Positions 4,875-58,870 of a stretch of DNA of 64,000 nt are shown piece after piece. How positions within the stretch are numbered: the stretch's first letter is position 1; every line of letters starts with the position of its first letter. Made by a program: the position numbers and the translations under genes. Source of the DNA: an uncultured bacterium (lineage in GTDB: Bacteria; Omnitrophota; Omnitrophia; Omnitrophales; Aquincolibacteriaceae). The DNA lies in contig CAYSSX010000001.1 of assembly GCA_964434115.1 (NCBI GenBank), forward strand, positions 85,571 through 149,570. The letters run 5' to 3'. Below the pieces are notes generated by a model. It did not search any database. It was given only the letters and a program-made list of their open reading frames with translations, and was not told the origin of the DNA.

Positions 4875-4875
4875 A

Positions 4876-6018
4876 ATGATTCTTTTTTGGCTGTCCGTAC
4901 TGCTTGTCCTTTATACCTACGCCGGATACCCGCTTATTCTCATGTGGCTTGCGCGGGTTTCCTCTCGCCCCGTGAAAAAAGGCTCTTATGAACCGCGCGT
5001 GAGCGTGATTGTCTCCGTGTATAACGAAGAGCGGTTTATCGCCGACAAGATTAACAATCTCCTGGCGTTGGATTATCCGGCGGAAAAAATAGAAATCCTG
5101 ATTGGCTCGGACGGCGGCACGGACAGCACGGATGAAATTGTTTCCGGCATCCACGACCCGAGAATCCGGTTTTTTAGATTTGTCGCGAATCTTGGAAAGC
5201 CGCATGTTTTAAACGGGCTGATCGCGGAAGCTCACGGCGCAGTGCTTGTGTTCACCGATGCCCGCCAGCGGTTTGAACCTCAAGCGGTCCGCAAGCTGGT
5301 TGAAAATTTTTCAGACCCTGATGTGGGCTGTGTTTCCGGAGAACTGTATTTTGAGGAAGCCCGCGGCAGCGGCGTGGCGCAAGGGATGGACGCTTATTGG
5401 AAGTATGAAAAATTTCTCCGTAAAAAAGAAGGGGAGATTGCTTCCATGCTGGGGGCCACCGGCGCCATTTACGCGGCCCGGGCCGATCTTGTCCCGACGC
5501 TTCCCCTGAATATCCTTGTGGACGACATGTACATTCCTCTGGCGATTGTTGCGAAAGGGTACCGCGCGGTTTTTGAGAGTGAAGCGCGGGCCTACGACCT
5601 TGCCTCCAGCAAAGGGACACAGGAATTGAAACGAAAGGTCCGCACGCTGTCGGGAAATTTCCAGATTTTTGCGGCCTTTCCAGACTTGTTAAAACCGTGG
5701 AAAAGCCCGGTGGCCTGGCAGCTCTTGTCGCATAAATTTTTGCGTCTTATGGTGCCGTACTTTTTGATGACCGCATTCCTGAGTAATCTTTTTTTATGCG
5801 CCCATCCTTTTTACTGTTTCTTGCTGCTGGTGCAGGCTGCTTTCTACAGTCTTGCGGCATTTGAGGCCTTGCGCGTGCACTTTTTTCCGCAGATGAAACC
5901 TTTCCGGCCCGCGGCGCTTCCCTACATGTTCTGCCTGCTCAATTTTTCTGCCGCGGCCGGGCTTCGTCAGTACCTCAAAGGGCAGCCCAAAGCCGCGTGG
6001 GACAAGGCTTACCCATGA
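4876..6018 (+). CDS. Family 2 glycosyltransferase, membrane-embedded processive type (N-terminal TM helix plus C-terminal TM bundle)
   Basis: VSVIVSVYNEERFI...LIGSDGGTDSTDEI (GT2 DxD region) and DDMYIPL. Hydrophobic N-terminus and C-terminal multi-TM region, as in PgaC/cellulose-synthase-like synthases. Confidence 0.85.
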   Translation: MILFWLSVLLVLYTYAGYPLILMWLARVSSRPVKKGSYEPRVSVIVSVYNEERFIADKINNLLALDYPAEKIEILIGSDGGTDSTDEIVSGIHDPRIRFFRFVANLGKPHVLNGLIAEAHGAVLVFTDARQRFEPQAVRKLVENFSDPDVGCVSGELYFEEARGSGVAQGMDAYWKYEKFLRKKEGEIASMLGATGAIYAARADLVPTLPLNILVDDMYIPLAIVAKGYRAVFESEARAYDLASSKGTQELKRKVRTLSGNFQIFAAFPDLLKPWKSPVAWQLLSHKFLRLMVPYFLMTAFLSNLFLCAHPFYCFLLLVQAAFYSLAAFEALRVHFFPQMKPFRPAALPYMFCLLNFSAAAGLRQYLKGQPKAAWDKAYP

Positions 6019-12917: not shown

Positions 12918-14192
12918 ATGACCTCAGCGGTTCAAAGTTCCGAAAAAAGTTCCAGGCGTTTAGAATTTCTTCAGGAAGAACTGCACTCCACATCGCCTCA
13001 TTATTCTAATCCGGATCATTTCCTCGAATTCGTTCTCGATTCAACGCTTTCTGTCGTAAAGGCGCATGCAGGTTCTTTGTTTCTTTGGGATGAATCCAAA
13101 AAGGCTTTGGTCTTGAAGTCTTCCCGCGGTCCTTACGGGAACCGCCTTAACCATGTTCATGTCCGTCTGCGTGAAGGTATTTCGGGATGGGTGGGCGGCA
13201 ACGGCCGTTCTGTTCTTGTGAAAGACATTCAGGCCGATCAGCGCTTCAGCCAGTTTAAGCGCGCCGGGCAGTACAAAACGGACTCCTTTATTTCTCTCCC
13301 TTTAATTGCATCCAATAAACTTGTGGGTGTTATCAATGTGACCGAGCGGGAAAGCCTGAGCGCGTTTACTGAAGAGGATTTTGAACGCGCGCGCGTTTTT
13401 GCCCAGTACATTGCGATCGCTTATGAAAACATGCGTCTTGCAGCGAAGCACAAGATTGAAAATCAACAGCTTGGAGACCGTGTGATGCGCTTGGAGCAAA
13501 CCTTGCGCGATCAAGAAGCTCTGGTGTCGGTCGGCCGGCTTGCTTCCAATCTTGCCCATGAGCTTAATAACCCGCTGGACTCCATACGCCGCTATGTGAA
13601 TTTGGCCCTTGATCAAGTGATGGAAGATTCGGTTGCGAGACAGTACATTCTGAATGCCAAAGAGGGGATCCGCCGCGCGGTTCAAGTCATACGCGGCCTC
13701 CTTCAATATACAAGAGAAACCGGGCGCATTGAACGCCGGGAATCGGAAATTCATCGCGTGCTCAGAGACAGTCTTGAAAGCGCGGTGAAGGATCAAAGTT
13801 TTGGAAGCATTAAAATCGAAACGAATTTTAAAGCCCCTCCCGCGATTGTCTCGGATTGCGGACTGATGTTTGTTTTTAGAAATCTTTTCAAAAATGCCCA
13901 TTACGCCATGAAAGGCGCCGGAACCTTGACGGTGGAAACCCATTATGAAAATGAACGCGTGGTTATTTGCGTTTCGGATACGGGCTCGGGAATTCCAGAA
14001 GCTGTAAAACGCCGTCTTTTTGAACCCTTCTTTTCCACAAAAAAGGATGAGGGTACCGGGATTGGTTTAACGATATGCCGCGAAATTGTTCAGAAATGCG
14101 GAGGAGACATCTCCTTCGAAAGCCAGATGGGTGTGGGCACTCAATTCTTGATTCAAATTCCCTGTAAGAAAAAGGAAATTCCAGCCGCGTGA
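12918..14192 (+). CDS. Cytoplasmic GAF-domain sensor histidine kinase
   Basis: N-terminal GAF-like region. HisKA box LASNLAHELNNPLDSIRRY. HATPase G-boxes VSDTGSGIPE and GTGIGLTICREIV. No TM segments. Confidence 0.85.
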   Translation: MTSAVQSSEKSSRRLEFLQEELHSTSPHYSNPDHFLEFVLDSTLSVVKAHAGSLFLWDESKKALVLKSSRGPYGNRLNHVHVRLREGISGWVGGNGRSVLVKDIQADQRFSQFKRAGQYKTDSFISLPLIASNKLVGVINVTERESLSAFTEEDFERARVFAQYIAIAYENMRLAAKHKIENQQLGDRVMRLEQTLRDQEALVSVGRLASNLAHELNNPLDSIRRYVNLALDQVMEDSVARQYILNAKEGIRRAVQVIRGLLQYTRETGRIERRESEIHRVLRDSLESAVKDQSFGSIKIETNFKAPPAIVSDCGLMFVFRNLFKNAHYAMKGAGTLTVETHYENERVVICVSDTGSGIPEAVKRRLFEPFFSTKKDEGTGIGLTICREIVQKCGGDISFESQMGVGTQFLIQIPCKKKEIPAA

Positions 14193-15553
14193 AAAACTCT
14201 GTCCTTATTATTGAAGACAACGACCTTGTAAGAAACTCCCTGACGGATTTCCTGACTCTGGAAGGGTGCCAGGTGTCGCAGGCCTCTGACGGTCCCGAGG
14301 GGCTTGACCTTATTGTCCAAAAAACGTTTGATCTGGCACTGATTGATTTAAGGCTTCCTTCCGCAAATGGTATTTCCATTCTCGAAAAAGCAAAAGCGAT
14401 CCGTCCGGATATGGACGTTATCATGATGACGAGTTTTGGAACCGTGGAGACCGCTGTTGAAGCCATGAAACTCGGGGCAGTCCATTACCTGACCAAACCG
14501 ATCAACGATGATGAACTGAAAATTATTCTGAAAAGGCTTTCGGACACGCGCCATCTCCGGGAAGAGAACGAGCACCTTCGCCAGGAACTGGATGACAAGC
14601 GTTCCCATTTTCATAATTTGATCGGGCAGGACAGCAAGATGCAGAAAATTTACTCGATCATCAAAGCCATCAGTGATACCGATACAACGGTGCTTCTGCG
14701 GGGCGAGAGCGGAACGGGTAAGGGCATGATCGCCCAAGCGATCCATTACAGTGACCCCTCGCGCAATAAAGGCCCCTATGTGGAAGTGAGCTGCGGAGCC
14801 ATTCCCCGTGAGCTGCTGGAAAGTGAACTGTTCGGTCATGTGAAAGGCTCTTTCACGAGCGCAATCCGCGACCGTATGGGTCGTTTTGAGCTGGCGAATG
14901 GGGGAACAATCCTCTTGGATGAAATCGATTCCCTTCCGCCTTATTTGCAGGTGAAACTGCTCCGCGTTCTTCAGCAGAAAGAATTTGAGCGCGTGGGAGA
15001 CACGAAGACCCTTCATGTTGATGTCCGGATTATTGCTTCGACCAACCGTGACCTGGCTGCCGAGATTGCAAGGGGACAGTTCCGGGAAGATCTTTATTAC
15101 CGCCTCAATGTCATTACCATCGATGTCCCGCCTCTGAGAGAGCGCAAAGAGGATATCCCCGCGCTTGTGAAGCATTTTCTCAGTGCCTTTAATCTTAAAA
15201 CCCGCAGGATGCTTAAGACCGTGAGTTCCCAAGCCATGAAACGCATTCTTGACTATCATTGGCCGGGCAATGTCCGGGAGCTGGAAAATTTTCTGGAACG
15301 GGCGGTTGTTTTGTCGCAGGGGGAAGTCCTGGATGTCGATGTTTTTCCGGAGTATATCGGGAAGAAGAGTGAAGCGTATCAGGTCCCGGAAGTCGAAAAT
15401 ACCTCGTTGAAGGAAGTCCTCAAAGAACCTGAAAAGCAGATTATCAAGAAAGTTCTGGATCAAGTCGGATGGAACCGCAAAAAAGCCGCCGGCTTGTTGA
15501 ACATCAACCGCACCACGCTTTACAACAAAATGAAGGAATACCAGCTGCTTTAG
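14189..15553 (+). CDS. Sigma-54-dependent response regulator (NtrC-family bacterial enhancer-binding protein: REC, AAA+, Fis-HTH)
   Basis: GTG start overlapping kinase stop (GTGA). Receiver LIIEDNDLVRNSL...LIDLRLP. Walker A GESGTGKG. ESELFGHVKGSFTSA (GAFTGA-loop variant). C-terminal HTH AAGLLNINRTTLYNKMKEY. Confidence 0.9.
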   Translation: MKNSVLIIEDNDLVRNSLTDFLTLEGCQVSQASDGPEGLDLIVQKTFDLALIDLRLPSANGISILEKAKAIRPDMDVIMMTSFGTVETAVEAMKLGAVHYLTKPINDDELKIILKRLSDTRHLREENEHLRQELDDKRSHFHNLIGQDSKMQKIYSIIKAISDTDTTVLLRGESGTGKGMIAQAIHYSDPSRNKGPYVEVSCGAIPRELLESELFGHVKGSFTSAIRDRMGRFELANGGTILLDEIDSLPPYLQVKLLRVLQQKEFERVGDTKTLHVDVRIIASTNRDLAAEIARGQFREDLYYRLNVITIDVPPLRERKEDIPALVKHFLSAFNLKTRRMLKTVSSQAMKRILDYHWPGNVRELENFLERAVVLSQGEVLDVDVFPEYIGKKSEAYQVPEVENTSLKEVLKEPEKQIIKKVLDQVGWNRKKAAGLLNINRTTLYNKMKEYQLL

Positions 15554-46058: not shown

Positions 46059-46714
46059 TGCCGCTCGTTAAGATCTGCGGAAATACAAATCTTGAGGATG
46101 TCCGCCTGGCCATCAAGCTTGGAGCGGACTTCATTGGCTTTATTTTTACGGAAAGCAAGCGCCGCATTTCAGTCGCGGAAGCAAACGCGATTATTCAGCA
46201 GTTTCCTGAATATCAAAATTTTGTCGGTGTTTTTCTGAATCAGCCCAAGAAGGAAGTGGAAGACGCGGCCCGGGAACTGGGCCTCAAATGGGTTCAGTTT
46301 CACGGCGATGAAACCGCGCTTTACTGTGAGTCTTTTATGGATCACGGGTTTTCTGTGATCAAAACCTTCCGTATTAAAGACGCCATGAGTCTCAAGCGGA
46401 TTGATGAATACAATGTGCAGGCCTTTCTTTTCGACACTTATTCAAGCGACAAAAAGGGCGGTACCGGGGTTCCCTTTGACTGGAGCCTGATTTCGGAACG
46501 TTCTTTTGTTCACGATAAACTTTTTCTGGCGGGCGGCCTCAACAATGAAAATCTTGAAGACGCGATCCGCCAGGTGAATCCGTTTGCGGTGGATGTCGCA
46601 AGCGGGGTTGAACTCAGCCCGGGCAAAAAAGACCCGGTGCTGCTTGAGCGGTTCATTCGATTGGCGCACGAGGGCCGAAAACGCAATGTCCCGGAAAGTA
46701 CCCTTCCTTCATAA
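46058..46714 (+). CDS. trpF: Phosphoribosylanthranilate isomerase
   Basis: MPLVKICGNT N-terminus (GGAGG RBS before ATG 46058); LAGGL; TIM barrel. Confidence 0.85.
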   Translation: MPLVKICGNTNLEDVRLAIKLGADFIGFIFTESKRRISVAEANAIIQQFPEYQNFVGVFLNQPKKEVEDAARELGLKWVQFHGDETALYCESFMDHGFSVIKTFRIKDAMSLKRIDEYNVQAFLFDTYSSDKKGGTGVPFDWSLISERSFVHDKLFLAGGLNNENLEDAIRQVNPFAVDVASGVELSPGKKDPVLLERFIRLAHEGRKRNVPESTLPS

Positions 46715-47900
46715 GTTTCTTTCCCGGCTGGACCGTGTGGACCGGGAGTCTCTCCAAAGCACTGTGCGGAGCCTTGCTCTGGAGCACGCGCAGTATCATG
46801 AAATCCTTCAGTCCCTGCCCATCGGGATTGCCCTGACCGCGAGGAATGGAAAAATTCTTTTTATCAATACCCAGGCTTTGGACTGTCTTGGCGCGGACCT
46901 CCGTGCTGCGGACAGCCCGTCGAAACTTTCATCACTTGCGCAAGACGCCGCGCTTCGGGCCTTTCTTGAAAAGCTGGAAAAGGTGGACCCCAAAGTGCTG
47001 AGTGAAGATCTCTCTGTGGTGCTTCCAAAGGAAATGGTGCTGCGAGTCAGCGTGACGCCTTTTGACAAAAGCGAGGCCGGGGAGCGGATGATCCTTTTCA
47101 CGGAAGGCGGGCAAAGCAAGAATCAGGCGGATGACTCGCTTCTGCAGCGGCGCGAATCACTTCTTAAGCTGGCCGCGGGGGTGGCGCATGAAATCGGTAA
47201 TCCGCTCAATTCGATCCATATTCATCTCGGTCTGCTGAAGCGCGACGCGGAAGAACTGCCAGCGCCCAAACAAAAGAATTTTCTCAAAACGCTTTCAGTG
47301 CTTCAGGCTGAAACCTCGCGCCTGGACCGCATTATCCGGGCCTTTCTCAAAGCCACGCGGAAGCCGCCGCTCCGTTTCAAGGAAAGCGACCTCAATGAAG
47401 TGATTCAGGGGTCTGTGGATTTTTTTCAACCGGAACTTGAGAAACACAAAATTCAGATCCGCTTCCGCCCGGACCGCATGCTGCCGTGCTTTCTCATGGA
47501 CAAGGAAAGGCTTCGTGAGGTTTTTGTGAACCTGATTAAGAATGCGATGGAAGCCATGCCGGAAGGCGGGTTGATCCGGATTTCCGTGACGCACCGGGCC
47601 AAGGCCGCGCTGATCCGCGTGAGGGATGAAGGAAACGGGATTCCGGAAGATTCCTTGCCGCATATTTTTGACGCCTATTACACCACCAAGCCGGAAGGTT
47701 CGGGGCTTGGATTGGTTTCGGTCTATAACGCTGTGGCCGAGCACGGGGGACGGATTGAAGTTGAAACGCGCCAAGGGAAAGGGACGACCTTTACCCTTCT
47801 TTTGCCCGTGCGGCAGCCGCGGCTGCAGCTGCCGGGCTACGGCAGTGCCTCAGGTTCGGCCCGCGAAAAAAAGAATGAACGAAATTCAGAAGGAGCCTAA
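46686..47900 (+). CDS. Sensor histidine kinase (PAS-like N-terminal region, HisKA, HATPase)
   Basis: H-box AAGVAHEIGNPLNSI; N-box NLIKNAMEAM; G-boxes RDEGNGIPE and GSGLGLVSV. Start uncertain (ORF opens at 46584, overlapping trpF). Confidence 0.8.
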   Translation: MSRKVPFLHKFLSRLDRVDRESLQSTVRSLALEHAQYHEILQSLPIGIALTARNGKILFINTQALDCLGADLRAADSPSKLSSLAQDAALRAFLEKLEKVDPKVLSEDLSVVLPKEMVLRVSVTPFDKSEAGERMILFTEGGQSKNQADDSLLQRRESLLKLAAGVAHEIGNPLNSIHIHLGLLKRDAEELPAPKQKNFLKTLSVLQAETSRLDRIIRAFLKATRKPPLRFKESDLNEVIQGSVDFFQPELEKHKIQIRFRPDRMLPCFLMDKERLREVFVNLIKNAMEAMPEGGLIRISVTHRAKAALIRVRDEGNGIPEDSLPHIFDAYYTTKPEGSGLGLVSVYNAVAEHGGRIEVETRQGKGTTFTLLLPVRQPRLQLPGYGSASGSAREKKNERNSEGA

Positions 47901-47903
47901 ATC

Positions 47904-49295
47904 ATGTCTGTCTATGCGACGCTGCTGATCGTGGATGATGAAAAAAATACCCGGGAAGGTTTGCAGCGTTTTTTGGAGGGCCTGGGGTTTGATGCCGTGA
48001 CGGCCGCGGATGGTGAGGAAGGGTGGGCGCTTTTTCAAAAAGAACGCCCCGACCTTGTGCTTTGCGACATCCGCATGCCGAAACTTGACGGCATCGGTCT
48101 TCTTGAAAAGATTAAAGCCCAGCATGCTTCTGCGGCCGTGATCCTTTTGACGGCTTATGGAACCGTCGAAGACGCGGTCAAAGCCATGAAAAAGGGCGCG
48201 TATTATTACCTGACCAAGCCGGTGAATCTGGAAGAGCTGGAGTTTCTTATAAACAAGGCTTTGGCCAGCCGCACGCTTGAAGAAGAAAACCGGGAGTTAA
48301 AGGAAGCGCTTTTTAAAGAGAAGTTTGAACAGGGGCAGATTCTTGCCGAGTCGCCGAAGATGCGTGAAATCCTGAAAACAGTGGAACAGGTCGCGGCTTC
48401 AAACGCCACGGTGCTGATCGAAGGGGAGAGCGGCAGCGGCAAGGAACTTATTGCCCACCGCATTCACGAACTCAGCCCCCGGCGGAACAAGCCTTTTGTG
48501 GCGGTCCACTGTGCCTCGCTTACGGAATCGCTTCTGTCCAGCGAGCTTTTTGGTCATGAGAAAGGTTCTTTTACGGGAGCATCGGAACGCAAAGTGGGAC
48601 GCTTTGAGCGCGCCCATCAGGGAACTTTATTTCTGGACGAGGTCGGGGAAATTTCGCAGGAAACGCAGGTGAAACTTCTGCGCGTGCTTCAGGAGCGGGA
48701 GTTTGAGCGTGTGGGCGGAACCAAAACGATTCAGGTGGATGTGCGCCTGATCTGTGCCACGAACAAAAATCTTTTGGAGGAAGTCCGGGCCGGCCGTTTT
48801 CGTGAGGATCTGTATTACCGTTTGAATGTGATTTATATGAAAGTCCCGTCACTCCGGGAACGGAGGGGAGATGTTCCGCTGCTTGTGAAATCGTTTGTGG
48901 AACATTATGGCCGCTTGAATAATAAAAAGATCCGTGAGATAGAACCCGCCGCGATGGACGCGCTGCAAAACTATGACTGGCCTGGGAATGTGCGCGAATT
49001 GAAAAACATTATTGAACGGATGATTGTCCTGAGTCAGGGGGATGTTTTGACTTTGGCCCATGTGCCGGAAGACCTTCGTCAGAATAAGCCCGCTTACCCG
49101 CTGTTGAACACGCTTCCGGGAGGGACTGCCGGTTCTTCCGCGCCCATGGCCTCGGCCCAGCTTGAGGATATGGAAAAAGAGTTTATCCGTGCCAAGCTTC
49201 AGGAGGCCAACGGTAACAAATCCCTGGCCGCCAAAAAACTGGGGATCTCGCGCCGGACCCTTTACCGGAAAATTGAATCTTACAAACTGGAATAA
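47904..49295 (+). CDS. Sigma-54-dependent response regulator (NtrC family)
   Basis: REC LLIVDDEKNTREGL...VLCDIRMP. Walker A GESGSGKE. SELFGHEKGSFTGA. C-terminal Fis-type HTH AAKKLGISRRTLYRKI. Confidence 0.9.
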   Translation: MSVYATLLIVDDEKNTREGLQRFLEGLGFDAVTAADGEEGWALFQKERPDLVLCDIRMPKLDGIGLLEKIKAQHASAAVILLTAYGTVEDAVKAMKKGAYYYLTKPVNLEELEFLINKALASRTLEEENRELKEALFKEKFEQGQILAESPKMREILKTVEQVAASNATVLIEGESGSGKELIAHRIHELSPRRNKPFVAVHCASLTESLLSSELFGHEKGSFTGASERKVGRFERAHQGTLFLDEVGEISQETQVKLLRVLQEREFERVGGTKTIQVDVRLICATNKNLLEEVRAGRFREDLYYRLNVIYMKVPSLRERRGDVPLLVKSFVEHYGRLNNKKIREIEPAAMDALQNYDWPGNVRELKNIIERMIVLSQGDVLTLAHVPEDLRQNKPAYPLLNTLPGGTAGSSAPMASAQLEDMEKEFIRAKLQEANGNKSLAAKKLGISRRTLYRKIESYKLE

Positions 49296-49500
49296 AAACT
49301 GCCAAAGCGGCACACTTTCTGCTGTGCCAAAACGCATCAGCTCTTCTTTAAGGCCTTCCACGAGCACCTCCCTAAATATTCTCTAAGTTATTTTATAGCT
49401 TTAAGTTGCAGGATACTTAGAGAAGCGCCCCTCGGTGGCACGGTAATTGATAAAGAGACGGTGCAGTAAAATATCAGGTCTTATCAAAAAGGAGATTTAT

Positions 49501-51440: not shown

Positions 51441-51476
51441 GCCCGGGCAGGGGAGAACCCCCTGTCCGGGCTTTTA
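51441..51476 (+). terminator. Rho-independent terminator after dnaK
   Basis: 13-bp GC-rich stem GCCCGGGCAGGGG / CCCCTGTCCGGGC (one G-U) with 4-nt loop, followed by TTTT. Confidence 0.7.
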
Positions 51477-51523
51477 AAAAGAGTCATTGACCTTCCTGTA
51501 ACTCCCTTTAAAATAATGCCTTT

Positions 51524-52414
51524 ATGAAAATGCGTGAAGGCCTTATTCCTCTCTTCGTGATTCTGTCTGCCGCTTTTCTGCCGAATGCTTGGGCGGAACC
51601 GCAGCTGACTGCCCGTGTTTCCTCCACTCAGCCTGTTCTCGATGAAAGCCTTCTTGTGACCCTGGATATTGAATGGGCTCAGGCCGAAGGCTCTTATGCC
51701 TTTACGCTTCCCATGCTTCCCTTAAAAAATCTTATCCTCAAAAGACAGGGTGAATCGCAGGAGACCTTTCAAAAGGGCGATGCTCTTGCGGCGCGCAAGA
51801 CTTTTGTGTTTGAAGTGCAGCCTGAGAAAAAGGGGAATGCCCGTATTGAATCTTTTGCTTTGACCTACGTCGAAAGTACTTCGGGCTCAAGCGGGGAGTT
51901 GAAGGTGCCCGCATTCGATATTCAGGTTCGGGCCAAGGGGCTTCCCGTGATCGTCAAGACTCTGGCCGCGGGGGCTCTTGCCGTGGTTGCGGCACTCTCG
52001 GTGATCCTGATGGTTCTCCGCGGAAAAAGAAAACGCCTGAACTCCGCGCGGGGCCCGGTGGAGTTGTCTCTGGAGGACCGTGCGGCCGGCGCTTTGCGGC
52101 AGCTCCCTGCGGTTTCCTCCGAGTCCGAAGCCTTGTCAAAGGGCGGTGTGGTTTTCCGTTCCTATTTGCTTGAGAAGTTTGCTCTTGCCCAGTCCTCGGC
52201 CGGAGATGCGGAAATCGTCCGCACGCTCGAAGATAAATCATTTGATGTTTCAGAGGTTCGCGCGGCGCGGCGGCTTTTGGAAAAATTCCGGGAAGCCCGT
52301 TATTCGGGCGTCCCCCTCGCGTCATCCGAAGTGCAGAGTATCCTGGAAGAATCGGCTTCCTGGATCGAACGGCGAAGAATTCTTGGGGCATCCGCCCAGT
52401 CAGTTAAAAAATAA
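51524..52414 (+). CDS. BatD-like N-terminal beta-domain fused to a TM helix and DUF4381-like cytoplasmic region (copy 1)
   Basis: Signal peptide MKMREGLIPLFVILSAAFLPNAWA; V..V....L.V.L.IEW pattern; TM LAAGALAVVAALSVILMVL; helical C-terminus. Sigma-70-like TTGACC-N16-TAAAAT immediately upstream. Confidence 0.55.
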   Translation: MKMREGLIPLFVILSAAFLPNAWAEPQLTARVSSTQPVLDESLLVTLDIEWAQAEGSYAFTLPMLPLKNLILKRQGESQETFQKGDALAARKTFVFEVQPEKKGNARIESFALTYVESTSGSSGELKVPAFDIQVRAKGLPVIVKTLAAGALAVVAALSVILMVLRGKRKRLNSARGPVELSLEDRAAGALRQLPAVSSESEALSKGGVVFRSYLLEKFALAQSSAGDAEIVRTLEDKSFDVSEVRAARRLLEKFREARYSGVPLASSEVQSILEESASWIERRRILGASAQSVKK

Positions 52415-52440
52415 CTTGTTGGCTTCCAAAGGAGGAAGAG

Positions 52441-53433
52441 ATGGAAAATGTTTCAATCAAGGAGATTAACGCCAAAGTCAAAGACGCGAGTTCGGTGATT
52501 CAGGATTTACTGCGCGAAATCGGAAAGGTGATCGTCGGCCAGCAGTACCTGGTGGAACGCCAGATGATCGCGATTCTGGGAGATGGCCATATCCTGATCG
52601 AAGGTCTTCCGGGTCTCGCGAAAACGATGTCCGTCAGAACGCTGGCCTCGGCCGTGAAATGCCACTTTCAGCGTATTCAGTTCACTCCGGACCTTCTTCC
52701 CGCTGACGTGGTAGGGACCTTGGTCTACAGCCCCAAAGACGGCACGTTTACGGTTAAGCACGGACCGATCTTTGCCAATATCGTGCTGGCCGACGAAATC
52801 AACCGCGCGCCTTCGAAAGTGCAGAGCGCGCTTCTTGAAGCCATGCAGGAAAAGCAGGTTACGATCGGCGAGAAAACCTACCCGCTTCCGAAGCCTTTTC
52901 TGGTGCTTGCCACGCAGAACCCGATTGAACAGGAAGGAACCTATCCGCTCCCGGAAGCCCAGGTCGACCGTTTCATGCTCAAGCTTGTGGTGACGTACCC
53001 GACGAAAAAAGAAGAAAAGGAAATTCTGGAGCGTATGTCTACGGGCCGCGAGATTGACGTGAACCCGGTCATCGACCCTCAGAAAATTCTGGAACTTCGC
53101 CAGATCGTGAACCAAATCTATATTGATGAAAAGGTGAAGGATTACATTCTGGACCTTGTCTTTGCCACACGCGCGCCGCAGGAATACAAACTTGAAAAAT
53201 TGAAACCGCTTATTTCTTTCGGGGCTTCACCCCGCGCAAGCATCATGCTGACGCGCGCGGCCAAGGCGCATGCCTTTATCCGCGGGCGCGGGTATGTGAC
53301 GCCGGATGACGTGAAGCAGATCGGAATGGACGTGCTTCGCCACCGGGTTTTGATTACCTACGAAGCGGAAGCCGAAGAAATGACCTCGGAACACATCGTG
53401 AAAGCGATTTTTGACCAGGTTGAGGTTCCATGA
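52441..53433 (+). CDS. MoxR-family AAA+ ATPase
   Basis: Walker A IEGLPGLAKT; Walker B VLADEINRA; sensor motifs; about 330 aa. Confidence 0.9.
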   Translation: MENVSIKEINAKVKDASSVIQDLLREIGKVIVGQQYLVERQMIAILGDGHILIEGLPGLAKTMSVRTLASAVKCHFQRIQFTPDLLPADVVGTLVYSPKDGTFTVKHGPIFANIVLADEINRAPSKVQSALLEAMQEKQVTIGEKTYPLPKPFLVLATQNPIEQEGTYPLPEAQVDRFMLKLVVTYPTKKEEKEILERMSTGREIDVNPVIDPQKILELRQIVNQIYIDEKVKDYILDLVFATRAPQEYKLEKLKPLISFGASPRASIMLTRAAKAHAFIRGRGYVTPDDVKQIGMDVLRHRVLITYEAEAEEMTSEHIVKAIFDQVEVP

Positions 53434-54305
53434 TCCCAAAAGAGGTCATGAAAAAGGTCCGGCATATTGAAATCCGGACCACCCGTCTCGTCAACGACCT
53501 CTTTGGAGGCGAATACGAGTCTGTCTTTAAAGGGCAGGGGATCGAATTCGCGGATGTCCGCGAGTACGTGCCGGGCGACGATATCCGTTCCATTGACTGG
53601 AATGTGACGGCGCGCAGCCAGACGACGTTTATCAAGAAGTATATGGAAGAGCGCGAGCTCACCGTGTTCTTTGTGGTGGATATGTCCGGCTCGCAGTATT
53701 TTGGAACCGGCCAGCGCCTGAAGTCCGAAGTGGCGGCTGAGATCACGGCCTTGCTGGCCTTTTCGGCCGTGAAGAACCACGATAAGACCGGTCTTGTCAT
53801 TGCCACGGACCGGGTGGAGAAATTCGTGCCGGTGAAGAAAGGCAAGATGCATGTGCTGCGCGTGGTGCGCGAAATTCTTTATTACAAACCCGAAGGCCGC
53901 AAGACCAAGTTGAGCGCCGCGCTTGAATACCTGCATAATTTTCTGACCCGCACGGCGGTTGTTTTCATTATTTCAGATTTTATGGATGACAGCTTTGAAA
54001 AACCTCTCAGGATTTTGAGCCAGCGCCACGACGTGGTGGCGATTCATCTTAAAGACCGCCGTGAAGAGGTTTTGCCGGACATCGGGCTTATGGAAGTCCA
54101 GGACCCTGAAACCGGGGAAAAGTTCCTGGTCAACACGGCGGACAAAAAACTTCGGCAGGAATTTGAAGCGGCCGCAGCGGAGCGCAACGAAAAATTAAGC
54201 AAGCTTTTAAAGCAGCTCCGGATTGACCGCATTGTGATTCCGGTGGAAGGTTCTTACGTTGAGCCGCTGATTAAATTTTTCAAGATCCGGGAGCGCCGCC
54301 TGTGA
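53430..54305 (+). CDS. DUF58 domain protein (VWA-like partner of MoxR)
   Basis: VREYVPGDDIRSIDWNVTAR and VDMSGS motifs. Confidence 0.8.
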   Translation: MIPKEVMKKVRHIEIRTTRLVNDLFGGEYESVFKGQGIEFADVREYVPGDDIRSIDWNVTARSQTTFIKKYMEERELTVFFVVDMSGSQYFGTGQRLKSEVAAEITALLAFSAVKNHDKTGLVIATDRVEKFVPVKKGKMHVLRVVREILYYKPEGRKTKLSAALEYLHNFLTRTAVVFIISDFMDDSFEKPLRILSQRHDVVAIHLKDRREEVLPDIGLMEVQDPETGEKFLVNTADKKLRQEFEAAAAERNEKLSKLLKQLRIDRIVIPVEGSYVEPLIKFFKIRERRL

Positions 54306-55261
54306 GACGTTTGCTCTTCTTCTTTCTCACGGCCGGGGTTTTGTTTCTTCCGCGCTTGGACGCGGCAGACAATCAAAATACGCCGATTTCAGTCAAGGCT
54401 GAAGTCGACCGCGCCGCGATTACGATCGGGGATCCGGTCAAGTATTCGGTGATCATCCAGTCCGCCCCGAACGTTCAAATCCTTTCCCCGATTCCGTATC
54501 CGCCCAAAGACATTTTTCAGATCAAGAAAATTGAAGAGATCAAGAACGAGGATGCCGGCCAGACGATCACCGGAAAAAAGTTCACGCTCACGGCCTACCA
54601 GCTCGGCGAGTTCATTCTCGAGCCCGTGGAAGTGGAGTACCGTATTAAAGGCGCTCCGGGCGCGGCGGCCGGGGGGGATGAGATCAAGAAGATCCAGACC
54701 AGCCGCATTTTTATCACGGTCAAGAGTGTTTCCGGCGGGAAACCCCAGACGGACATCCGCGGCCTCAAAGCCATTCTTTCCATTCCTCTGAATGTTTTAG
54801 GCATCGGACTCGCGGTTGCCGCGGGGATTTTATTGATTTTGATTCCGATGATTTACCGTATTTGGAAAAAGCGTTCAGCCTTGCCGCCGGCGCCCAAGGT
54901 CATTCTTACCGCGGAAGAAGAAGCCATAGGGCAGCTGAACCAGCTTTTCGATTCCGAGCTTCTCCGTGAAGGGCGGACCAAGGAGTATTTTTTCCGGCTC
55001 TCGGAAATCCTGCGCTTCTATCTTGAAAAGCGTTATAAAATCGCAGCCGTCGAGTCGACCACTTTCGAGATTGTCCGCATGTTCAGGTCTGTCGATGTCT
55101 CTAACGAATTGAGGAACAAAATCCGTGAAGTGCTGGAGGCTTCAGACCTGGCGAAGTTCGCGAAGTACAGGCCCGAACCCGCGGAGATTCTGAATTTAAA
55201 CAAGCAATCCAAGGAGATCGTGGAAGCTTCGCGGCCCCGGGAGGCTTCCGGTGGAGTTTAG
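54302..55261 (+). CDS. BatD-like N-terminal beta-domain fused to a TM helix and DUF4381-like region (copy 2)
   Basis: Signal peptide MRRLLFFFLTAGVLFLP; VKAEVDRAAITIGDPVKYSVII; TM LGIGLAVAAGILLILIPMIY; C-terminal ...TTFEIVRMF... helical domain. Confidence 0.55.
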   Translation: MRRLLFFFLTAGVLFLPRLDAADNQNTPISVKAEVDRAAITIGDPVKYSVIIQSAPNVQILSPIPYPPKDIFQIKKIEEIKNEDAGQTITGKKFTLTAYQLGEFILEPVEVEYRIKGAPGAAAGGDEIKKIQTSRIFITVKSVSGGKPQTDIRGLKAILSIPLNVLGIGLAVAAGILLILIPMIYRIWKKRSALPPAPKVILTAEEEAIGQLNQLFDSELLREGRTKEYFFRLSEILRFYLEKRYKIAAVESTTFEIVRMFRSVDVSNELRNKIREVLEASDLAKFAKYRPEPAEILNLNKQSKEIVEASRPREASGGV

Positions 55262-56231
55262 GCATCCAGGGGTTTTCCTTCTCATTTTTCTGCTTCCGCT
55301 GATTTTCTATATCGCGTCAAAAAAGTCACGCGTTTACCTGCCTTTCTCGACCACGGCGCTTTTCAGAAAGCCGCAAATTTCCCTGAGAATTTTTCTCTAC
55401 CGCGCTATGCCTTACCTCCGGGCGCTGGTTCTGCTGCTTTTTGTGGTGGCTTTGGCGCGCCCTCAAAAAGTCGCGGCCGAGCGCGAGTACAGCACCAACG
55501 GCGTGGATATCGTGATCTCCCTCGACTTGTCAGGATCCATGCTGGCGGAAGATTTTAAACCGGAAAACCGCATGGCCATCGCCAAGCAGGAAGCCATTAA
55601 ATTTATCCGGGGACGTGAAAATGACAGGATCGGCCTTGTGGTCTTTGCGCGCAAGGCGTTTACGCAATGCCCGCTCACCCTGGATTACGATGTTTTGACG
55701 GACCTCACGGACCAGCTTCACGTGGGAATGATCCCGGACGGCACAGCGATCGGCATGGGACTGGCCACGGCCGTGAACCGGCTTCGTGACAGCCAGGCCA
55801 AAAGCAAAGTCATTATTCTGATCACGGACGGATCCAACAACGCGGGCAATATTGACCCCATCACAGCCGCCGAACTGGCTAAGACGTTTGGAATCCGCGT
55901 GCATTCCATTGTCGTGGGGAAGGGCGGTCTTGTGCCTTTTCCGGTGAATGACCCGTTGTTTGGAAAGCGCTACGTACAGGCCAATATCGAAATTGACGAG
56001 GACGTGATGAAGCGGATCGCGGATATTACGGGAGGCTTGTTCTTCCGCGCCCGTGATCCTGAGTCCCTCCACCAGATTTACCAGAAAATCAATGAATTGG
56101 AAAAGACGGAAGTGAAGGTCAAGGAATACCGCAGTTTCGAAGAGTACTTTCACTTGTTCCTGATTCCCGCGCTCCTGCTTTTGTTTCTCGATTGGTTTCT
56201 GGCGCGAACCCTTCTCATGAAGGTGCCCTGA
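55251..56231 (+). CDS. batA: VWA-domain membrane protein (BatA-like)
   Basis: Two N-terminal TM helices. VWA MIDAS DIVISLDLSGSM...TDG. C-terminal TM. Confidence 0.8.
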   Translation: MEFRHPGVFLLIFLLPLIFYIASKKSRVYLPFSTTALFRKPQISLRIFLYRAMPYLRALVLLLFVVALARPQKVAAEREYSTNGVDIVISLDLSGSMLAEDFKPENRMAIAKQEAIKFIRGRENDRIGLVVFARKAFTQCPLTLDYDVLTDLTDQLHVGMIPDGTAIGMGLATAVNRLRDSQAKSKVIILITDGSNNAGNIDPITAAELAKTFGIRVHSIVVGKGGLVPFPVNDPLFGKRYVQANIEIDEDVMKRIADITGGLFFRARDPESLHQIYQKINELEKTEVKVKEYRSFEEYFHLFLIPALLLLFLDWFLARTLLMKVP

Positions 56232-58408
56232 TGCAGTTTTTTCATCCCGAATACTTTCTTTTGCTCTGGGTGCTTCCGGCGGTTTGGGGACTCCACGTCC
56301 TTTCCGTGCGGCTGTGGCAAGGCCGCATGAAACGTTTTGGCGACCGGGTCACGCTTGAAACCAAATTGCTTCCTCAGTACCGGAAAAACCACTGGGGTGT
56401 GCGCGCGGTTTTGATCACCCTGGTGTTTCTTTTTTCCATTCTGGCGCTGGCCCGGCCGCAGTGGGGTGAAGAGAAAAAGAAGGTCCAGCGTAAAGGCGTT
56501 GACCTTGTATTTCTTCTCGATACTTCACTCAGTATGCTTGCCGAAGATGTGAAGCCGAACCGTTTTGAAAAAGCCCAGATGGAGATCAAGAGTTTTGTGC
56601 GCAGTCTTAAAGGGGACAGGATCGGGCTCGTGGCCTTTTCGGGATCCAGTTTTCTGCAGGCGCCATTGACGCTTGATTACGCTGCCTTTTTTCTTTTTCT
56701 GGACGGTATCCGGGTAGGCTATATTCCGGACCCCGGAACCTCCCTGAGTAAGGCCATTGGGCTTTCCATACGGTCTTTTCCCAAAGACGATATGAAGCAT
56801 AAGGCCCTTATCCTCTTTACCGATGGGGAAGACCTGCAGGGGGGGATGGATGAGGCCATTAAGGCGGCCAAGGAAGCGGGGGTTCGTATCTACACCATTG
56901 GCGTGGGTACGGAAGAAGGGGACCCGATCCCCCTCAAGGACGATACCGGCCGGAAGAGCGGCTTTAAGAAGGACCGTGCCGGGCAGGTGGTCGTGACCAA
57001 GCTGGACAAAGCACTGCTTCAAAAAATCGCGGCGGAAACAGGCGCTGTGTATCTTCCCAGCACCCCGGGTGAGGACGAAGTGGAATATATCCTCAAACAC
57101 CTTCAAAGTTTGGGTCAGCGGCAGTTTAAAGAAAAGCTGATTTCCGAAAAAGAAGATCATTACCAGATTTTCGTTTTTCTCGCTTTTTTCTTTTTGCTGC
57201 TGGAAATGATGGTGCGCGTGACCCGGAAAAACGGGAGCGTTTCAGGCCCCAGCGTTCTTCCGGTGCTGCTTTTATTTTTTCTGTTTACCGGCTTTCTCGA
57301 CACCACGCGTTCGCTCAATGAAAAAGGCAATGCCGAATTTGAACAAAAAAAATACCAGACCGCGCTTGAGAATTACCGCAAGGCGCAGGTGAAAAATCCG
57401 GATGACCCGGTGGTGATGTACAACCTTGGGGCGGGTCTTTACCAGACCCAGCAGTATCAGGAAGCGAAAAAGAATTTTGAAGGCGCTATCGCCAAGACCA
57501 AGGACCCGGAACTTAAGGCCAAAGCGCTCTACAATTACGGCAATACGCTTTACCGTTTAGGGGATTTTGAGAAGGCTATTGATTCCTATAAAAAGGCTCT
57601 TGAGCTCAAGCCCGACGACCAGGACGCCAAATACAATCTTGAGTTTTTGCAGAAGTCCAAGAACCGGATGGAAAAGGAAAACCAGGACAAACAAAAGCAA
57701 AGTGATAAACAGGACCAAAAGCAAAATCAGGACAAACAGCAGAATCAGCAGAACCAGCAGCAGAAGCCCGATCAGAAAAAGGACCAGCAGCAGAACCAGG
57801 GCGATCAGCAGCCCCAGGACCAGCAGGGGGAAGGCCAGCAGGGCAAGCAGGGGGACCAGAAGCAGGACCAGAATCAGGATCAAGATCAGAAGAAAGAACC
57901 CCAGGACCAGCAGGGCGAACAAAACCAGGATCAGAAAGACCCTCAAGATCAGCAGGGCCAGCAAGGTGAAAAGGACGACCAGAAGCAGGATCAGAAGCGC
58001 GATGAGGGCGATCAGCAGGATCAGCAGCCGAAACCCAAAGAGGACGGCCAGCCCGAAGAAGCCAAGCCTGAGGACGAGCAAGGTAATGAACCCCCGGAGC
58101 AGCCTGATCAAAAGGAAGGCGATCAGCCCCAGGACCAGCCGGAACCGAATCAAGAAGGTCAGCCCGAGCAGGCCAGCCCTGATGAGCAGCAAGGCGATCA
58201 GCCTGGAGAGCAAGGCGAACAGACGGAGCAAAGTGCGGGACAGGAAGAAAACCCTCAATCCCAGCAAAAAGCGCCGCTTCAAGGGCAAATGACTAAAGAG
58301 AACGCGCTTCGTATGCTTGACGCGATGAAAGACGGCGAAAAGGACCTACAGGACCTCCGCCGGCCGCCGTCCGAACATAAAGAAGTGCCGCCGGAAAAAG
58401 ACTGGTAA
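56231..58408 (+). CDS. batB: VWA plus TPR protein (BatB-like) with about 210-aa Q/D/K/E-rich low-complexity C-terminal tail
   Basis: TGATG overlap with batA. VWA MIDAS DLVFLLDTSLSM...TDGED. TPR repeats (YNLGAGLYQTQQYQEAKKNF, YNYGNTLYRLGDFEKAIDSYKKALEL). Then QDQKQ-rich tail. Confidence 0.8.
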   Translation: MQFFHPEYFLLLWVLPAVWGLHVLSVRLWQGRMKRFGDRVTLETKLLPQYRKNHWGVRAVLITLVFLFSILALARPQWGEEKKKVQRKGVDLVFLLDTSLSMLAEDVKPNRFEKAQMEIKSFVRSLKGDRIGLVAFSGSSFLQAPLTLDYAAFFLFLDGIRVGYIPDPGTSLSKAIGLSIRSFPKDDMKHKALILFTDGEDLQGGMDEAIKAAKEAGVRIYTIGVGTEEGDPIPLKDDTGRKSGFKKDRAGQVVVTKLDKALLQKIAAETGAVYLPSTPGEDEVEYILKHLQSLGQRQFKEKLISEKEDHYQIFVFLAFFFLLLEMMVRVTRKNGSVSGPSVLPVLLLFFLFTGFLDTTRSLNEKGNAEFEQKKYQTALENYRKAQVKNPDDPVVMYNLGAGLYQTQQYQEAKKNFEGAIAKTKDPELKAKALYNYGNTLYRLGDFEKAIDSYKKALELKPDDQDAKYNLEFLQKSKNRMEKENQDKQKQSDKQDQKQNQDKQQNQQNQQQKPDQKKDQQQNQGDQQPQDQQGEGQQGKQGDQKQDQNQDQDQKKEPQDQQGEQNQDQKDPQDQQGQQGEKDDQKQDQKRDEGDQQDQQPKPKEDGQPEEAKPEDEQGNEPPEQPDQKEGDQPQDQPEPNQEGQPEQASPDEQQGDQPGEQGEQTEQSAGQEENPQSQQKAPLQGQMTKENALRMLDAMKDGEKDLQDLRRPPSEHKEVPPEKDW
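57655..58290 (+). repeat. Coding low-complexity repeat tract (CAG/GAC/AAG-rich; encodes QDQKQ-type tail of BatB-like protein)
   Basis: Reiterated caggac/cagcag/aagcag units; produces spurious ORFs in other frames and on the minus strand. Confidence 0.6.
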
Positions 58409-58423
58409 ACCTCGGGAGGAATT

Positions 58424-58870
58424 ATGAGTTTGGATCAAAAAATTCAGGATGACATTGTTCAAGCCATGAAAGCCAAGGACGCGGACACGCTTTCCGTGTT
58501 AAGAATGCTGAAAACCATGCTGACTAATACCAAAATCCAGAAAAAGCGTGAAACCCTGGAAGATTCTGAAACGCTCGAAGTTCTTCAAAAACAGGCCAAG
58601 CAGCGTAAAGAAAGCATCGAGAGCTTTGAAAAAGCCGGCCGCGCGGATCTTGCGGAAAAAGAAAAACGGGAATACGAGATTTTGAAGAAGTATCTGCCTG
58701 AACAGCTGGATGATGCCGCTATCAAGGCTTTGGCTGAAAAAGCGATTCAATCCACAGGCGCCAAAGGAAAAGCAGACCTTGGCAAGGTCATGAAAGAATT
58801 AATGCCAGCCGTCAAAGGTAAGGCTGACGGTAAGCGCGTTAATGAAATCCTCGCGGGATTACTGCCTTAA
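58424..58870 (+). CDS. yqeY: GatB/YqeY-domain protein
   Basis: MSLDQKIQDDIVQAMKAKDADTLSVLRMLKTML; about 148 aa. Confidence 0.85.
   Translation: MSLDQKIQDDIVQAMKAKDADTLSVLRMLKTMLTNTKIQKKRETLEDSETLEVLQKQAKQRKESIESFEKAGRADLAEKEKREYEILKKYLPEQLDDAAIKALAEKAIQSTGAKGKADLGKVMKELMPAVKGKADGKRVNEILAGLLP

Follow-up and report, generated by a model that had tools for sequence, protein, structure and literature searches.

The region analysed here lies within a window of 64,000 nucleotides and represents a real six-gene Bat/MoxR envelope-stress operon of an uncultivated Omnitrophota bacterium. Taken as a whole, it is best explained as the form that the widespread Bat (Bacteroides aerotolerance)/MoxR-DUF58-VWA operon takes in Omnitrophota, a reading to which we assign a probability of about 0.8. 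The part of this explanation that concerns identity and evolution is well supported and highly probable, while the coupling mechanism discussed below is a tentative hypothesis. Only the gene arrangement is lineage-specific, as the two proteins encoded 5' of moxR and 3' of the DUF58 gene, here termed A and B, both belong to the known BatD family as short members; what remains unusual is solely that A lies 5' of moxR and that the long BatD and BatE have been lost.

Organization of the operon

The six open reading frames are all located on the forward strand in the order A, MoxR, DUF58, B, BatA and BatB-BatC fusion; neighbouring frames from MoxR to BatB overlap by 4-40 nt, and A and MoxR are spaced by 26 nt. 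The same gene order had been given for this place in the first-pass annotation and is supported by Pfam matches, and its assignment to the Bat/MoxR type agrees with the AAA_3, DUF58 and VWA domain matches. The region comprises the following features:

51441..51471, + strand: intrinsic-terminator hairpin of dnaK, 13-bp stem followed by UUUU (RNA fold, sequence read)
51487..51514, + strand: sigma-70-like promoter TTGACC-N16-TAAAAT (10/12 consensus matches)
51524..52414, + strand: protein A, short BatD-family paralog, 296 aa (AlphaFold2, Pfam BatD, long-BatD HMM, hhalign)
52441..53433, + strand: MoxR AAA+ ATPase, 330 aa (Pfam AAA_3, AAA_lid_2)
53430..54305, + strand: DUF58 protein, VWA-like, 291 aa (Pfam DUF58, VWA_2)
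54302..55261, + strand: protein B, gene 3 ortholog, 319 aa (AlphaFold2, hhalign, BLASTP, shared slot)
55251..56231, + strand: BatA-like protein, 326 aa (Pfam VWA and BatA N-terminal domain; NCBIfam VWA_BatA_Lepto)
56192..58408, + strand: BatB-BatC fusion, 738 aa from the first possible start (Pfam VWA/TPR; NCBIfam)
58424..58870, + strand: YqeY-like gene (Pfam YqeY, E 1.3e-48)

MoxR matches Pfam AAA_3 (E 8.7e-66) and AAA_lid_2 (E 7.6e-23), and Walker A (GLPGLAKT) and Walker B (LADEINR) motifs can be read in its sequence. As it also matches Pfam bpMoxR, the MoxR of MoxR-vWA-beta-propeller ternary systems (E 8e-16), the locus might be taken for a conflict or anti-phage system of the MoxR-VWA kind instead of an envelope/stress system. 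This is highly improbable, since the AAA_3 match is far stronger, no beta-propeller or effector gene occurs at the locus, PADLOC returned no defence-family match save a generic TPR match, and synteny of the locus with housekeeping genes extends over a whole phylum. The DUF58 protein (Pfam DUF58, E 1.4e-81; VWA_2, E 8.7e-14) has the MIDAS motif DMSGS at residue 84 and is the cytoplasmic VWA-like partner of MoxR; transmembrane segments were predicted in neither of the two. BatA matches Pfam VWA (E 1.8e-19), the BatA N-terminal domain (E 2.3e-5; 25.2 bits, with a cut-off of 25.9) and NCBIfam VWA_BatA_Lepto (E 1.8e-65, under the equivalog cut-off), and consists of two N-terminal transmembrane segments, a VWA domain with the MIDAS motif DLSGS at residue 92, and a C-terminal transmembrane segment.

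The last protein of the operon has four transmembrane segments, a VWA domain with the MIDAS motif DTSLS (Pfam VWA_2, E 1e-16; NCBIfam VWA_BatB_Lepto, E 6.5e-43), TPRs at residues 374-495 and a C-terminal low-complexity tail of 243 aa rich in Q/D/E/K/P. The MIDAS motifs are intact in DUF58, BatA and BatB. Translation of BatB likely begins at M14 (nt 56231), within a TGATG overlapping the BatA stop codon. BatC and BatE had both been noted as absent. This holds for BatE, whereas BatC is present as a fusion to BatB, as residues 377-534 match NCBIfam TPR_BatC_Lepto (E 2.9e-20) and the protein matches Bacteroides BatC in a phmmer search (2.7e-24). No long BatD was found within 8 kb in the surveyed Omnitrophota loci; the Omnitrophota operon lacks both BatE, a TPR-SH3 protein, and the long BatD with its multiple sandwiches.

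The operon is flanked by dnaK (5') and yqeY (3'), a lineage-specific arrangement in Omnitrophota, and yqeY follows BatB in most Omnitrophota loci that reach beyond BatB. Here, the YqeY-like gene starts 15 nt 3' of BatB and may be co-transcribed with the operon. The hairpin downstream of dnaK is stable (dG -30.8 kcal/mol; z -4.9 against 200 shuffles). Directly behind it, the promoter element described in the first-pass annotation was located, ending 10 nt 5' of the A start codon; however, such sites are not above chance in the region (3 found, 4.1 expected from shuffles), and a similar element occurs at the same position in only 7/36 related loci, the nearest relatives.

Position of A within the operon

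Among Omnitrophota loci with the upstream region present, A was found 5' of moxR in 42/45, a count that includes two locus pairs in which the same contig or operon was retrieved twice. The remaining three have dnaK adjacent to moxR and lack A, and two Omnitrophota loci lack BatA; thus, neither A nor BatA is strictly required. It might be argued from these three loci, and from the position of A directly 3' of dnaK with a gap of merely 3-40 nt in many relatives, that A has its functional link with dnaK, or is a membrane protein in its own right, and only adjoins the Bat operon. We consider this quite unlikely: A is a paralog of the third gene of the operon, moxR follows 26 nt away on the same strand, and in the window a strong terminator and a promoter-like site separate A from dnaK. 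In addition, A is located 5' of moxR with no dnaK called upstream both in one further locus (L004) and in Sumerlaeota.

Proteins A and B are short members of the BatD family

AlphaFold2 predicted the same build for both proteins, in which a signal peptide is followed by one Ig-like beta-sandwich, a single transmembrane helix and a cytoplasmic tail of five helices, in line with the layout of signal, BatD-like beta domain, transmembrane segment and DUF4381-like helical tail proposed earlier. In A (pLDDT 91.8), the signal peptide (AWA|EP) is followed by the periplasmic sandwich (27-136), the transmembrane helix (142-174) with the basic residues RGKRKR right behind it, and the tail (183-282). In B (pLDDT 88.0), the sandwich spans residues 29-141 and the transmembrane helix, followed by KKR, residues 163-193; the tail (204-309) contains an invariant DLAKFAK at residues 282-288. 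B is thus a BatD-family protein of type I topology in the inner membrane, with a cleaved signal peptide, one periplasmic sandwich and a DUF4381-like cytoplasmic tail. The two flanking proteins had been described as paralogous, and by sequence comparison they are indeed paralogs, with a BLASTP E of 5e-7 for the single sequences and an hhalign probability of 99.3% (E 4.2e-20, 264 columns) for the family profiles.

Profile searches for BatD and DUF4381 did detect similarity, although A and B by themselves stay under the Pfam cut-offs. A matches Pfam BatD (PF13584) at E 1e-3 (20.1 bits; cut-off 24.1), and B matches BatD at E 4e-3 (18.2 bits) and DUF4381 at E 0.071, both under the gathering cut-offs. 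Support comes from the family level: Pfam BatD is matched by 26/67 members of the A family and DUF4381 by 12/67 (E<=0.01), and in the B family the corresponding numbers are 34/49 and 14/49 (E<=0.1). An HMM built from 20 long BatDs detected A (2.3e-16) and B (2.2e-15) and matched nothing else within the window. In hhalign, the A-family and B-family profiles align to the long-BatD profile at 98.6% and 98.3%, in both cases over the last beta domain of BatD, its transmembrane helix and its tail.

The combination of a BatD-type domain with a DUF4381-like module had been taken as a departure from described operons, and it might be supposed that a novel fusion was invented and duplicated here, replacing a small DUF4381 gene. 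The weak Pfam BatD matches of both proteins and the weak DUF4381 match of B would fit, as would the DUF4381-only gene that occupies the position of B in proteobacterial operons. However, long BatD ends in the same module, and a 674-aa long BatD of Sumerlaeota matches Pfam DUF4381 over transmembrane helix and tail (E 2.7e-4), indicating that the apparent fusion is the native architecture of the BatD family. Furthermore, in Bacteroides and many other phyla a protein of this full-length architecture is already encoded behind DUF58, and a second gene with a BatD domain, bf2420 of B. fragilis, is already in the literature (PMC5700661). A novel fusion is therefore very unlikely and, for B, largely refuted.

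B is instead the ordinary third gene, orthologous to the canonical gene 3 found in Bat operons. It aligns to Bacteroides gene 3 across beta domain, transmembrane helix and tail (hhalign 98.6%, E 8e-16; BLASTP E 1e-12), and the slot after DUF58 is occupied by members of the B family at 75 loci, which represent at least eight phylum-level groups (Omnitrophota, Elusimicrobia, Binatia, Armatimonadota, Sumerlaeota, Margulisiibacteriota, Bacteroidota and Verrucomicrobia). In the synteny survey, the position of A 5' of moxR was lineage-specific, whereas the B slot is common to at least seven other phylum-level groups.

A represents a second subfamily, which evolves faster and shares the architecture of B, and which opens the operon at its 5' end in Omnitrophota and Sumerlaeota; its homologues form 426 clusters (50% identity, E<=1e-3), almost all of 280-300 aa. 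Alternatively, A might be the Omnitrophota ortholog of long BatD, cut to one beta-sandwich, moved to the front of the operon and doing the job of BatD. Omnitrophota loci have A and no long BatD within 8 kb, A aligns well to the terminal module of BatD, and Sumerlaeota long BatD is matched by the A-family HMM at E 1e-19 to 4e-22 and by the B-family HMM at only about 1e-4. Yet Sumerlaeota (L060, L080) possess an A-like gene 5' of moxR in addition to long BatD and BatE downstream, the best non-self matches of this A-like protein are Omnitrophota A proteins, and the profile-profile score of A is higher with B (141) than with BatD (124.5). We therefore regard a shortened BatD as a minor possibility and favour A as a separate subfamily.

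A putative role of A and B in coupling

MoxR, as a hexamer, and DUF58, its VWA-like adaptor, would reside in the cytoplasm. In BatA and BatB, the VWA/MIDAS domains, and in BatB also the TPRs, are predicted to be periplasmic from their homology to Borrelia BB0173, an inner-membrane protein of mapped topology with a periplasmic VWA domain (PMC5700661). Among the membrane subunits, only A and B would then have sizeable cytoplasmic domains, namely their helical tails, and it is therefore tentatively proposed that these tails are docking sites for MoxR-DUF58 or are remodelled by it. As transmembrane couplers, A and B might thus bring about the assembly or switching of a periplasmic complex of beta-sandwich, VWA and TPR domains, which may serve the envelope and stress tolerance as published for the Bat operons of other bacteria. 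Stress phenotypes have been published for Bat and MoxR mutants (PMC11834572, PMC3557215); however, L. biflexa bat mutants had no oxidative-stress phenotype (PMC3557215).

Comparison with known Bat/MoxR operons

In Bacteroides (B. finegoldii, L005), the operon consists of moxR, DUF58, a bf2420-type gene 3, batA, batB, batC, batD and batE and shares the core order MoxR-DUF58-short BatD-family protein-BatA-BatB with the operon described here. A small DUF4381 gene had been stated to follow DUF58 in Bacteroides and Leptospira, but the slot holds proteins of 362 aa and 289 aa instead. The Bacteroides protein, named 'BatD family protein' by PGAP, is homologous to B. Both operons have two BatD-family members (PMC5700661), and the duplicated BatD domains of B. 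fragilis, bf2420 and bf2416, had already been remarked upon in 2017 (PMC5700661). The second member is, however, a 606-aa BatD with three repeats 3' of BatC in Bacteroides and the 296-aa single-sandwich A 5' of moxR here. Bacteroides also encodes BatC as a gene of its own, which is fused to BatB here, and a BatE (TPR+SH3), which the present operon lacks.

The Leptospira/Borrelia bat clusters similarly encode MoxR, DUF58, a slot-3 protein of about 290 aa with signal and transmembrane segment, BatA and BatB. In size and layout, the Leptospira slot-3 protein resembles B, but no sequence similarity between the two was detectable (hhalign 6%). Long BatD is present in these clusters, BatC is a separate gene in Leptospira, and the adjoining chaperone gene is htpG in Leptospira and dnaK here.

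The proteobacterial operons of the type MoxR-DUF58-DUF4381-VWA-VWA(-TPR-BatD), as found in Legionella, Sagittula, Pantoea, Vibrio and on Rhizobium plasmids, have the same order as well. Their slot-3 gene encodes a transmembrane helix and a helical tail (DUF4381) which align to the tails of B and A, although the similarity is merely moderate (hhalign 77% to B and 73% to A for a profile of five such proteins); in 5/5 operons examined, this protein has 145-182 aa and lacks the periplasmic beta-sandwich.

Sumerlaeota are the sole other group found with an A-type gene directly 5' of moxR. The A-type protein (377 aa) carries an N-terminal extension rich in P/S/A, and, unlike the operon described here, that of Sumerlaeota keeps separate BatC, long BatD and BatE. 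As in Omnitrophota, however, the A-type protein consists of one beta-sandwich, a transmembrane helix and a tail, and B follows DUF58.

Gene content of the operon

Six forward-strand ORFs fill the interval 51524-58408:

Genes of the bat operon, in order of transcription
51524-52414, + strand, protein A, 296 aa; first ORF, ends 26 nt before moxR
next, + strand, MoxR, 330 aa; Pfam AAA_3, E 8.7e-66
next, + strand, DUF58 protein, 291 aa; Pfam DUF58, E 1.4e-81
54302-55261, + strand, protein B, 319 aa; in the slot between DUF58 and BatA
next, + strand, BatA-like VWA protein, 326 aa; Pfam VWA (E 1.8e-19) and BatA N-terminal domain
last, + strand, BatB-like VWA-TPR protein, 738 aa; Pfam VWA and TPRs

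From moxR to batB the neighbouring genes overlap by 4-40 nt, the moxR/DUF58 overlap being 4 nt. The MoxR-type AAA+ ATPase carries Walker A and Walker B motifs and is adjoined by the DUF58 gene; two membrane-anchored VWA proteins with MIDAS motifs, BatA and BatB, are encoded downstream, and the MIDAS DxSxS motif is intact in DUF58, BatA and BatB. No TM segments are predicted for MoxR and DUF58, three for BatA and four for BatB. Against the NCBIfam Leptospira models, BatA scored at E 1.8e-65 and BatB at E 6.5e-43, both under the equivalog cut-off. The Bat-type operon of six genes, in the order proposed by the first-pass annotation, is thus borne out by the ORFs and by the Pfam and NCBIfam searches. 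The slot between DUF58 and BatA, referred to as gene 3 in Bat operons, is occupied by B, a protein with a TM segment and a helical tail.

That annotation had also regarded BatC and BatE as absent. This holds for BatE, as no SH3-bearing BatE of the TPR-SH3 type occurs in the window, but not for BatC: residues 377-534 of BatB match TPR_BatC_Lepto (NCBIfam, E 2.9e-20), and Bacteroides BatC matches the TPR region of BatB in phmmer (2.7e-24), so that BatC is fused to BatB rather than missing. A long multi-repeat BatD is likewise not encoded in the window, where A and B are the only BatD-like ORFs. Membership of a defence system was considered and rejected, a PADLOC scan having returned no defence-system match.

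The longest ORF of batB begins at TTG 56192; the BatA-type N-terminal domain extends from residue 14, and an ATG at 56231 shares bases with the stop codon of batA (TGATG), which together indicate that the true start is probably 56231. Residues 496-738 of BatB (57677-58408) form a 243-aa C-terminal tail of extremely low complexity, consisting of 30% Q and for the remainder mostly of D, E, K, P and G, and the underlying DNA contains short imperfect repeats of 9-18 nt. Intact Omnitrophota BatB ORFs range from 601 to 813 aa, and this variation suggests that the tail is a variable periplasmic spacer. A YqeY-like gene (58424-58870) starts 15 nt past batB and holds the same position in most Omnitrophota loci that reach beyond batB; given this conserved position, it may be co-transcribed with the bat genes.

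Proteins A and B are members of the BatD family

Taken singly, A and B match Pfam BatD (PF13584) at 20.1 bits (E 1e-3) and 18.2 bits (E 4e-3), short of the gathering cut-off of 24.1, and B matches Pfam DUF4381 (PF14316) at 13.8 bits (E 0.071; gathering cut-off 27.2, not reached), while A gave no match to the latter model. The similarity is supported by the respective family members: counted at E<=0.1 for B-type and at E<=0.01 for A-type proteins, BatD was detected in 34/49 B-type (best E 4e-6) and 26/67 A-type sequences (best E 5.5e-7), and DUF4381 in 14/49 (best E 1.4e-5) and 12/67 (best E 2e-5), respectively. When 20 long BatDs from other phyla were used to build an HMM, it recovered A (2.3e-16) and B (2.2e-15) and matched nothing else in the 64 kb. 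Upon alignment by hhalign to the terminal module of BatD, which comprises the last beta domain, the TM segment and the tail, the A profile reached 98.6% and the B profile 98.3%. Homology of both proteins to bona fide BatD was therefore found across the beta domain, the TM segment and the C-terminal tail. The two are also related to each other, by BLASTP over TM and tail (E 5e-7) and by deep profiles over 264 columns (hhalign 99.3%, E 4.2e-20).

AlphaFold2 models of B (pLDDT 88.0) and A (91.8) display an identical layout, in which a signal helix is followed by an Ig-like beta-sandwich (about 110 residues), a single long TM helix and finally a bundle of five helices spanning about 100 residues. 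Together with the family Pfam matches and the profile comparisons, these models confirm the earlier view of A and B as paralogs composed of a signal, a BatD-like domain, a TM segment and a DUF4381-like tail. Each has a single sandwich instead of the tandem BatD/DUF11-like repeats, and the roughly 110 aa of beta-sandwich before the TM helix set both apart from small DUF4381-type proteins of about 150-180 aa with a short N-terminal segment. A HEPN domain, considered only for the fold of the tail, was not recovered in the form of a four-helix up-down bundle with a catalytic Rx4-6H motif. Both TM helices are directly followed by basic residues, RGKRKR in A and KKR in B, which points to a cytoplasmic tail and a periplasmic sandwich and makes A and B predicted type I membrane proteins. 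Foldseek searches against the PDB yielded only generic Ig-like and TM matches, and profile searches of PDB sequences with the A and B families gave no meaningful match. The relationship of A to Bacteroides BatD or gene 3 escaped single-sequence and 7-sequence profile comparisons and was detected only with a 67-sequence profile.

One module behind four annotations

The terminal module is not restricted to short proteins. A 674-aa Sumerlaeota BatD matches Pfam DUF4381 over residues 530-663 (E 2.7e-4), and against a profile of five proteobacterial DUF4381 proteins hhalign gave 77% for the B tail, 73% for the A tail and 57% for the BatD tail. Since long BatDs end in the same module and align with DUF4381, a BatD-family protein is composed of n beta-sandwiches, a TM segment and a DUF4381-like tail, DUF4381 being the form with n = 0, and no new fusion has to be invoked. 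The combination of BatD and DUF4381, previously put forward as a novelty of this locus, is accordingly an ordinary feature of long BatD and of the gene-3 protein of Bacteroides. A single module of TM plus tail thus unites gene 3, BatD, DUF4381 and the Omnitrophota protein A, which simplifies annotation and marks the tail as a likely contact for the cytoplasmic ATPase. DUF4381 itself is essentially unstudied in the literature.

Distribution of the operon variants

One genome per species was scanned with B-family motifs, which yielded 75 loci in a survey that starts from B-like motifs and over-represents Omnitrophota; its ORFs were labelled by custom HMM and phmmer searches. The gene-3 protein is kept in these 75 loci. 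Elusimicrobia, Binatia, Armatimonadota, Sumerlaeota, Bacteroidota and Verrucomicrobia share the order MoxR-DUF58-B-BatA-BatB-(BatC)-BatD-BatE, with BatDs of 585-892 aa in the non-Omnitrophota loci. The synteny survey suggested by the first-pass annotation revealed an Omnitrophota-wide pattern, (dnaK)-A-MoxR-DUF58-B-BatA-BatB::TPR-YqeY, and no long BatD or BatE was found within 8 kb in any Omnitrophota locus. A is present in 42/45 Omnitrophota loci with the upstream region covered, a count that takes in repeats (L001/L002 and L003/L028 are the same contig or operon retrieved twice). It is missing from three loci (L036, L046 and L053), where dnaK abuts moxR, and BatA is missing from two (L001 and L013); thus, neither A nor BatA is strictly essential to the system. 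Another locus, L041, carries two tandem A genes (4098-6011). Close to the bat operon of an Omnitrophota genome (L003, GCA_964482725.1), at a distance of a few kb, a gene called at 13145-14948 (-) has a product of 21,902 residues; giant genes in Omnitrophota are already reported in a preprint (bioRxiv 10.1101/2023.11.21.568195). We found no paper linking Omnitrophota with MoxR or Bat.

The A family is large and fast-evolving, with 426 clusters at 50% identity (E <= 1e-3), nearly all of 280-300 aa. Outside Omnitrophota, Sumerlaeota were the only group among the surveyed loci in which moxR is immediately preceded by an A-type gene. A might be regarded as a relocated BatD. However, the Sumerlaeota A-type gene stands beside BatD and BatE, and the best non-self matches of its product are Omnitrophota A proteins; these observations favour a third subfamily of the BatD family. 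The profile-profile scores (A-B 141, A-BatD 124.5, B-BatD 117.5), at about 20% identity, lie close together, and A may have arisen from BatD or from gene 3.

Upstream signals and a possible link to dnaK

The terminator of dnaK is a 13-bp hairpin at 51441-51471 (dG -30.8 kcal/mol, z -4.9). Behind it, the sequence TTGACC-N16-TAAAAT described earlier as a sigma-70-like promoter is indeed present (51487-51514), but such sites are no commoner in the region than in shuffles, and an element of this type recurs in only 7/36 related loci. No sigma-54 promoter was found before A; the sole well-placed match in the window lies upstream of dnaK:

Elements upstream of dnaK
46584-47900, histidine kinase
47904-49295, NtrC-type sigma-54-dependent response regulator
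49436-49450, + strand, sigma-54-type -24/-12 element (TGGCACGGTAATTGA), directly after both genes and about 50 nt upstream of dnaK (ATG 49502)

The motif TGGCA[CT]-N5-TTG[ACT] precedes dnaK in 33/34 Omnitrophota loci, whereas by our own estimate, which assumes equal base frequencies, about 0.002 occurrences per locus would be expected by chance. From this conservation, dnaK appears to be under sigma-54 and two-component control across Omnitrophota. Where the gap between dnaK and A measures 3-40 nt, the bat genes probably ride on the dnaK transcript.

A possible role of the tails

Bat/MoxR operons are widespread, and their mutants display stress and virulence phenotypes. In BB0173, a homolog of BatA, three TM helices anchor the protein in the inner membrane, and the VWA domain lies on the periplasmic side (PMC5700661). 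By analogy, the VWA domains of BatA and BatB as well as the TPR region and the Q-rich tail of BatB would face the periplasm. Apart from the tails of A and B, the membrane subunits would then have no substantial cytoplasmic domain. Tails of this kind co-occur with MoxR-DUF58 in all operon variants examined, even where a periplasmic part is lacking, as in DUF4381. On these two grounds, we propose that the tails might serve as a docking site or substrate of MoxR-DUF58, and that BatD-family proteins might pass assembly or a conformational change on to the periplasmic complex of sandwich, VWA and TPR domains. In physiological terms, the system most likely serves envelope and stress tolerance. In Riemerella, a MoxR mutant is heat-sensitive and a batA mutant oxidant-sensitive (PMC11834572); by contrast, L. 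biflexa bat mutants had no oxidative phenotype (PMC3557215).

Taken together, it might be speculated that gene 3, A, long BatD and proteobacterial DUF4381 share, in their TM segment and DUF4381-like (HEPN-fold-like) tail, a module that MoxR-DUF58 universally uses in the cytoplasm as a docking site or substrate, and that BatD-family proteins act as transmembrane couplers in all Bat systems. The Omnitrophota version would then be a minimal one: it would have two couplers, each with a single Ig domain, and neither BatD nor BatE. Its transcription would be tied to dnaK and to the conserved sigma-54 promoter and accompanying two-component system, which would make it an envelope-proteostasis machine co-regulated with DnaK. 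We consider this full reading tentative and give it a chance of roughly one in four. Comprising six genes, two of which encode BatD-family proteins with a single domain each, the Omnitrophota operon represents a minimal system that could suit structural work.

Comparison with known Bat operons

Annotated canonical operons were retrieved with the DUF58 protein of the window as query. A small DUF4381 gene had been expected after DUF58 in Bacteroides and Leptospira. Instead, Bacteroides finegoldii encodes, in order, an AAA ATPase, DUF58, a 362-aa "BatD family protein", two VWA proteins, a TPR protein, a 606-aa BatD and a TPR/SH3 protein, and the third slot of Leptospira interrogans holds a 289-aa hypothetical protein. 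The DUF4381-only gene (145-182 aa) is the proteobacterial form, present in the third slot of 5/5 operons (Legionella, Sagittula, Pantoea, Vibrio and Rhizobium). The Bacteroides gene-3 protein resembles B (BLASTP E 1e-12), and its alignment to the B-family profile covers the sandwich as well as the TM segment and the tail (98.6%, E 7.9e-16, 253 columns). Scans of two long BatDs, one of Bacteroides and one of Sumerlaeota, gave three matched stretches each, compared to one sandwich in A and B. A duplication of BatD domains, in bf2420 and bf2416, was already stated for B. fragilis in 2017 (PMC5700661). Sumerlaeota possess the A-type gene directly upstream of moxR besides BatD and BatE, unlike Omnitrophota, which are without long BatD and BatE near the operon. 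The locus is thus the form that a known operon takes across the phylum Omnitrophota, of an ordinary housekeeping type, and our analysis corrects its over-call as a new system. B is ordinary, and the distinctive feature is solely the presence of A, shared with Sumerlaeota, along with the loss of BatD and BatE from the operon.
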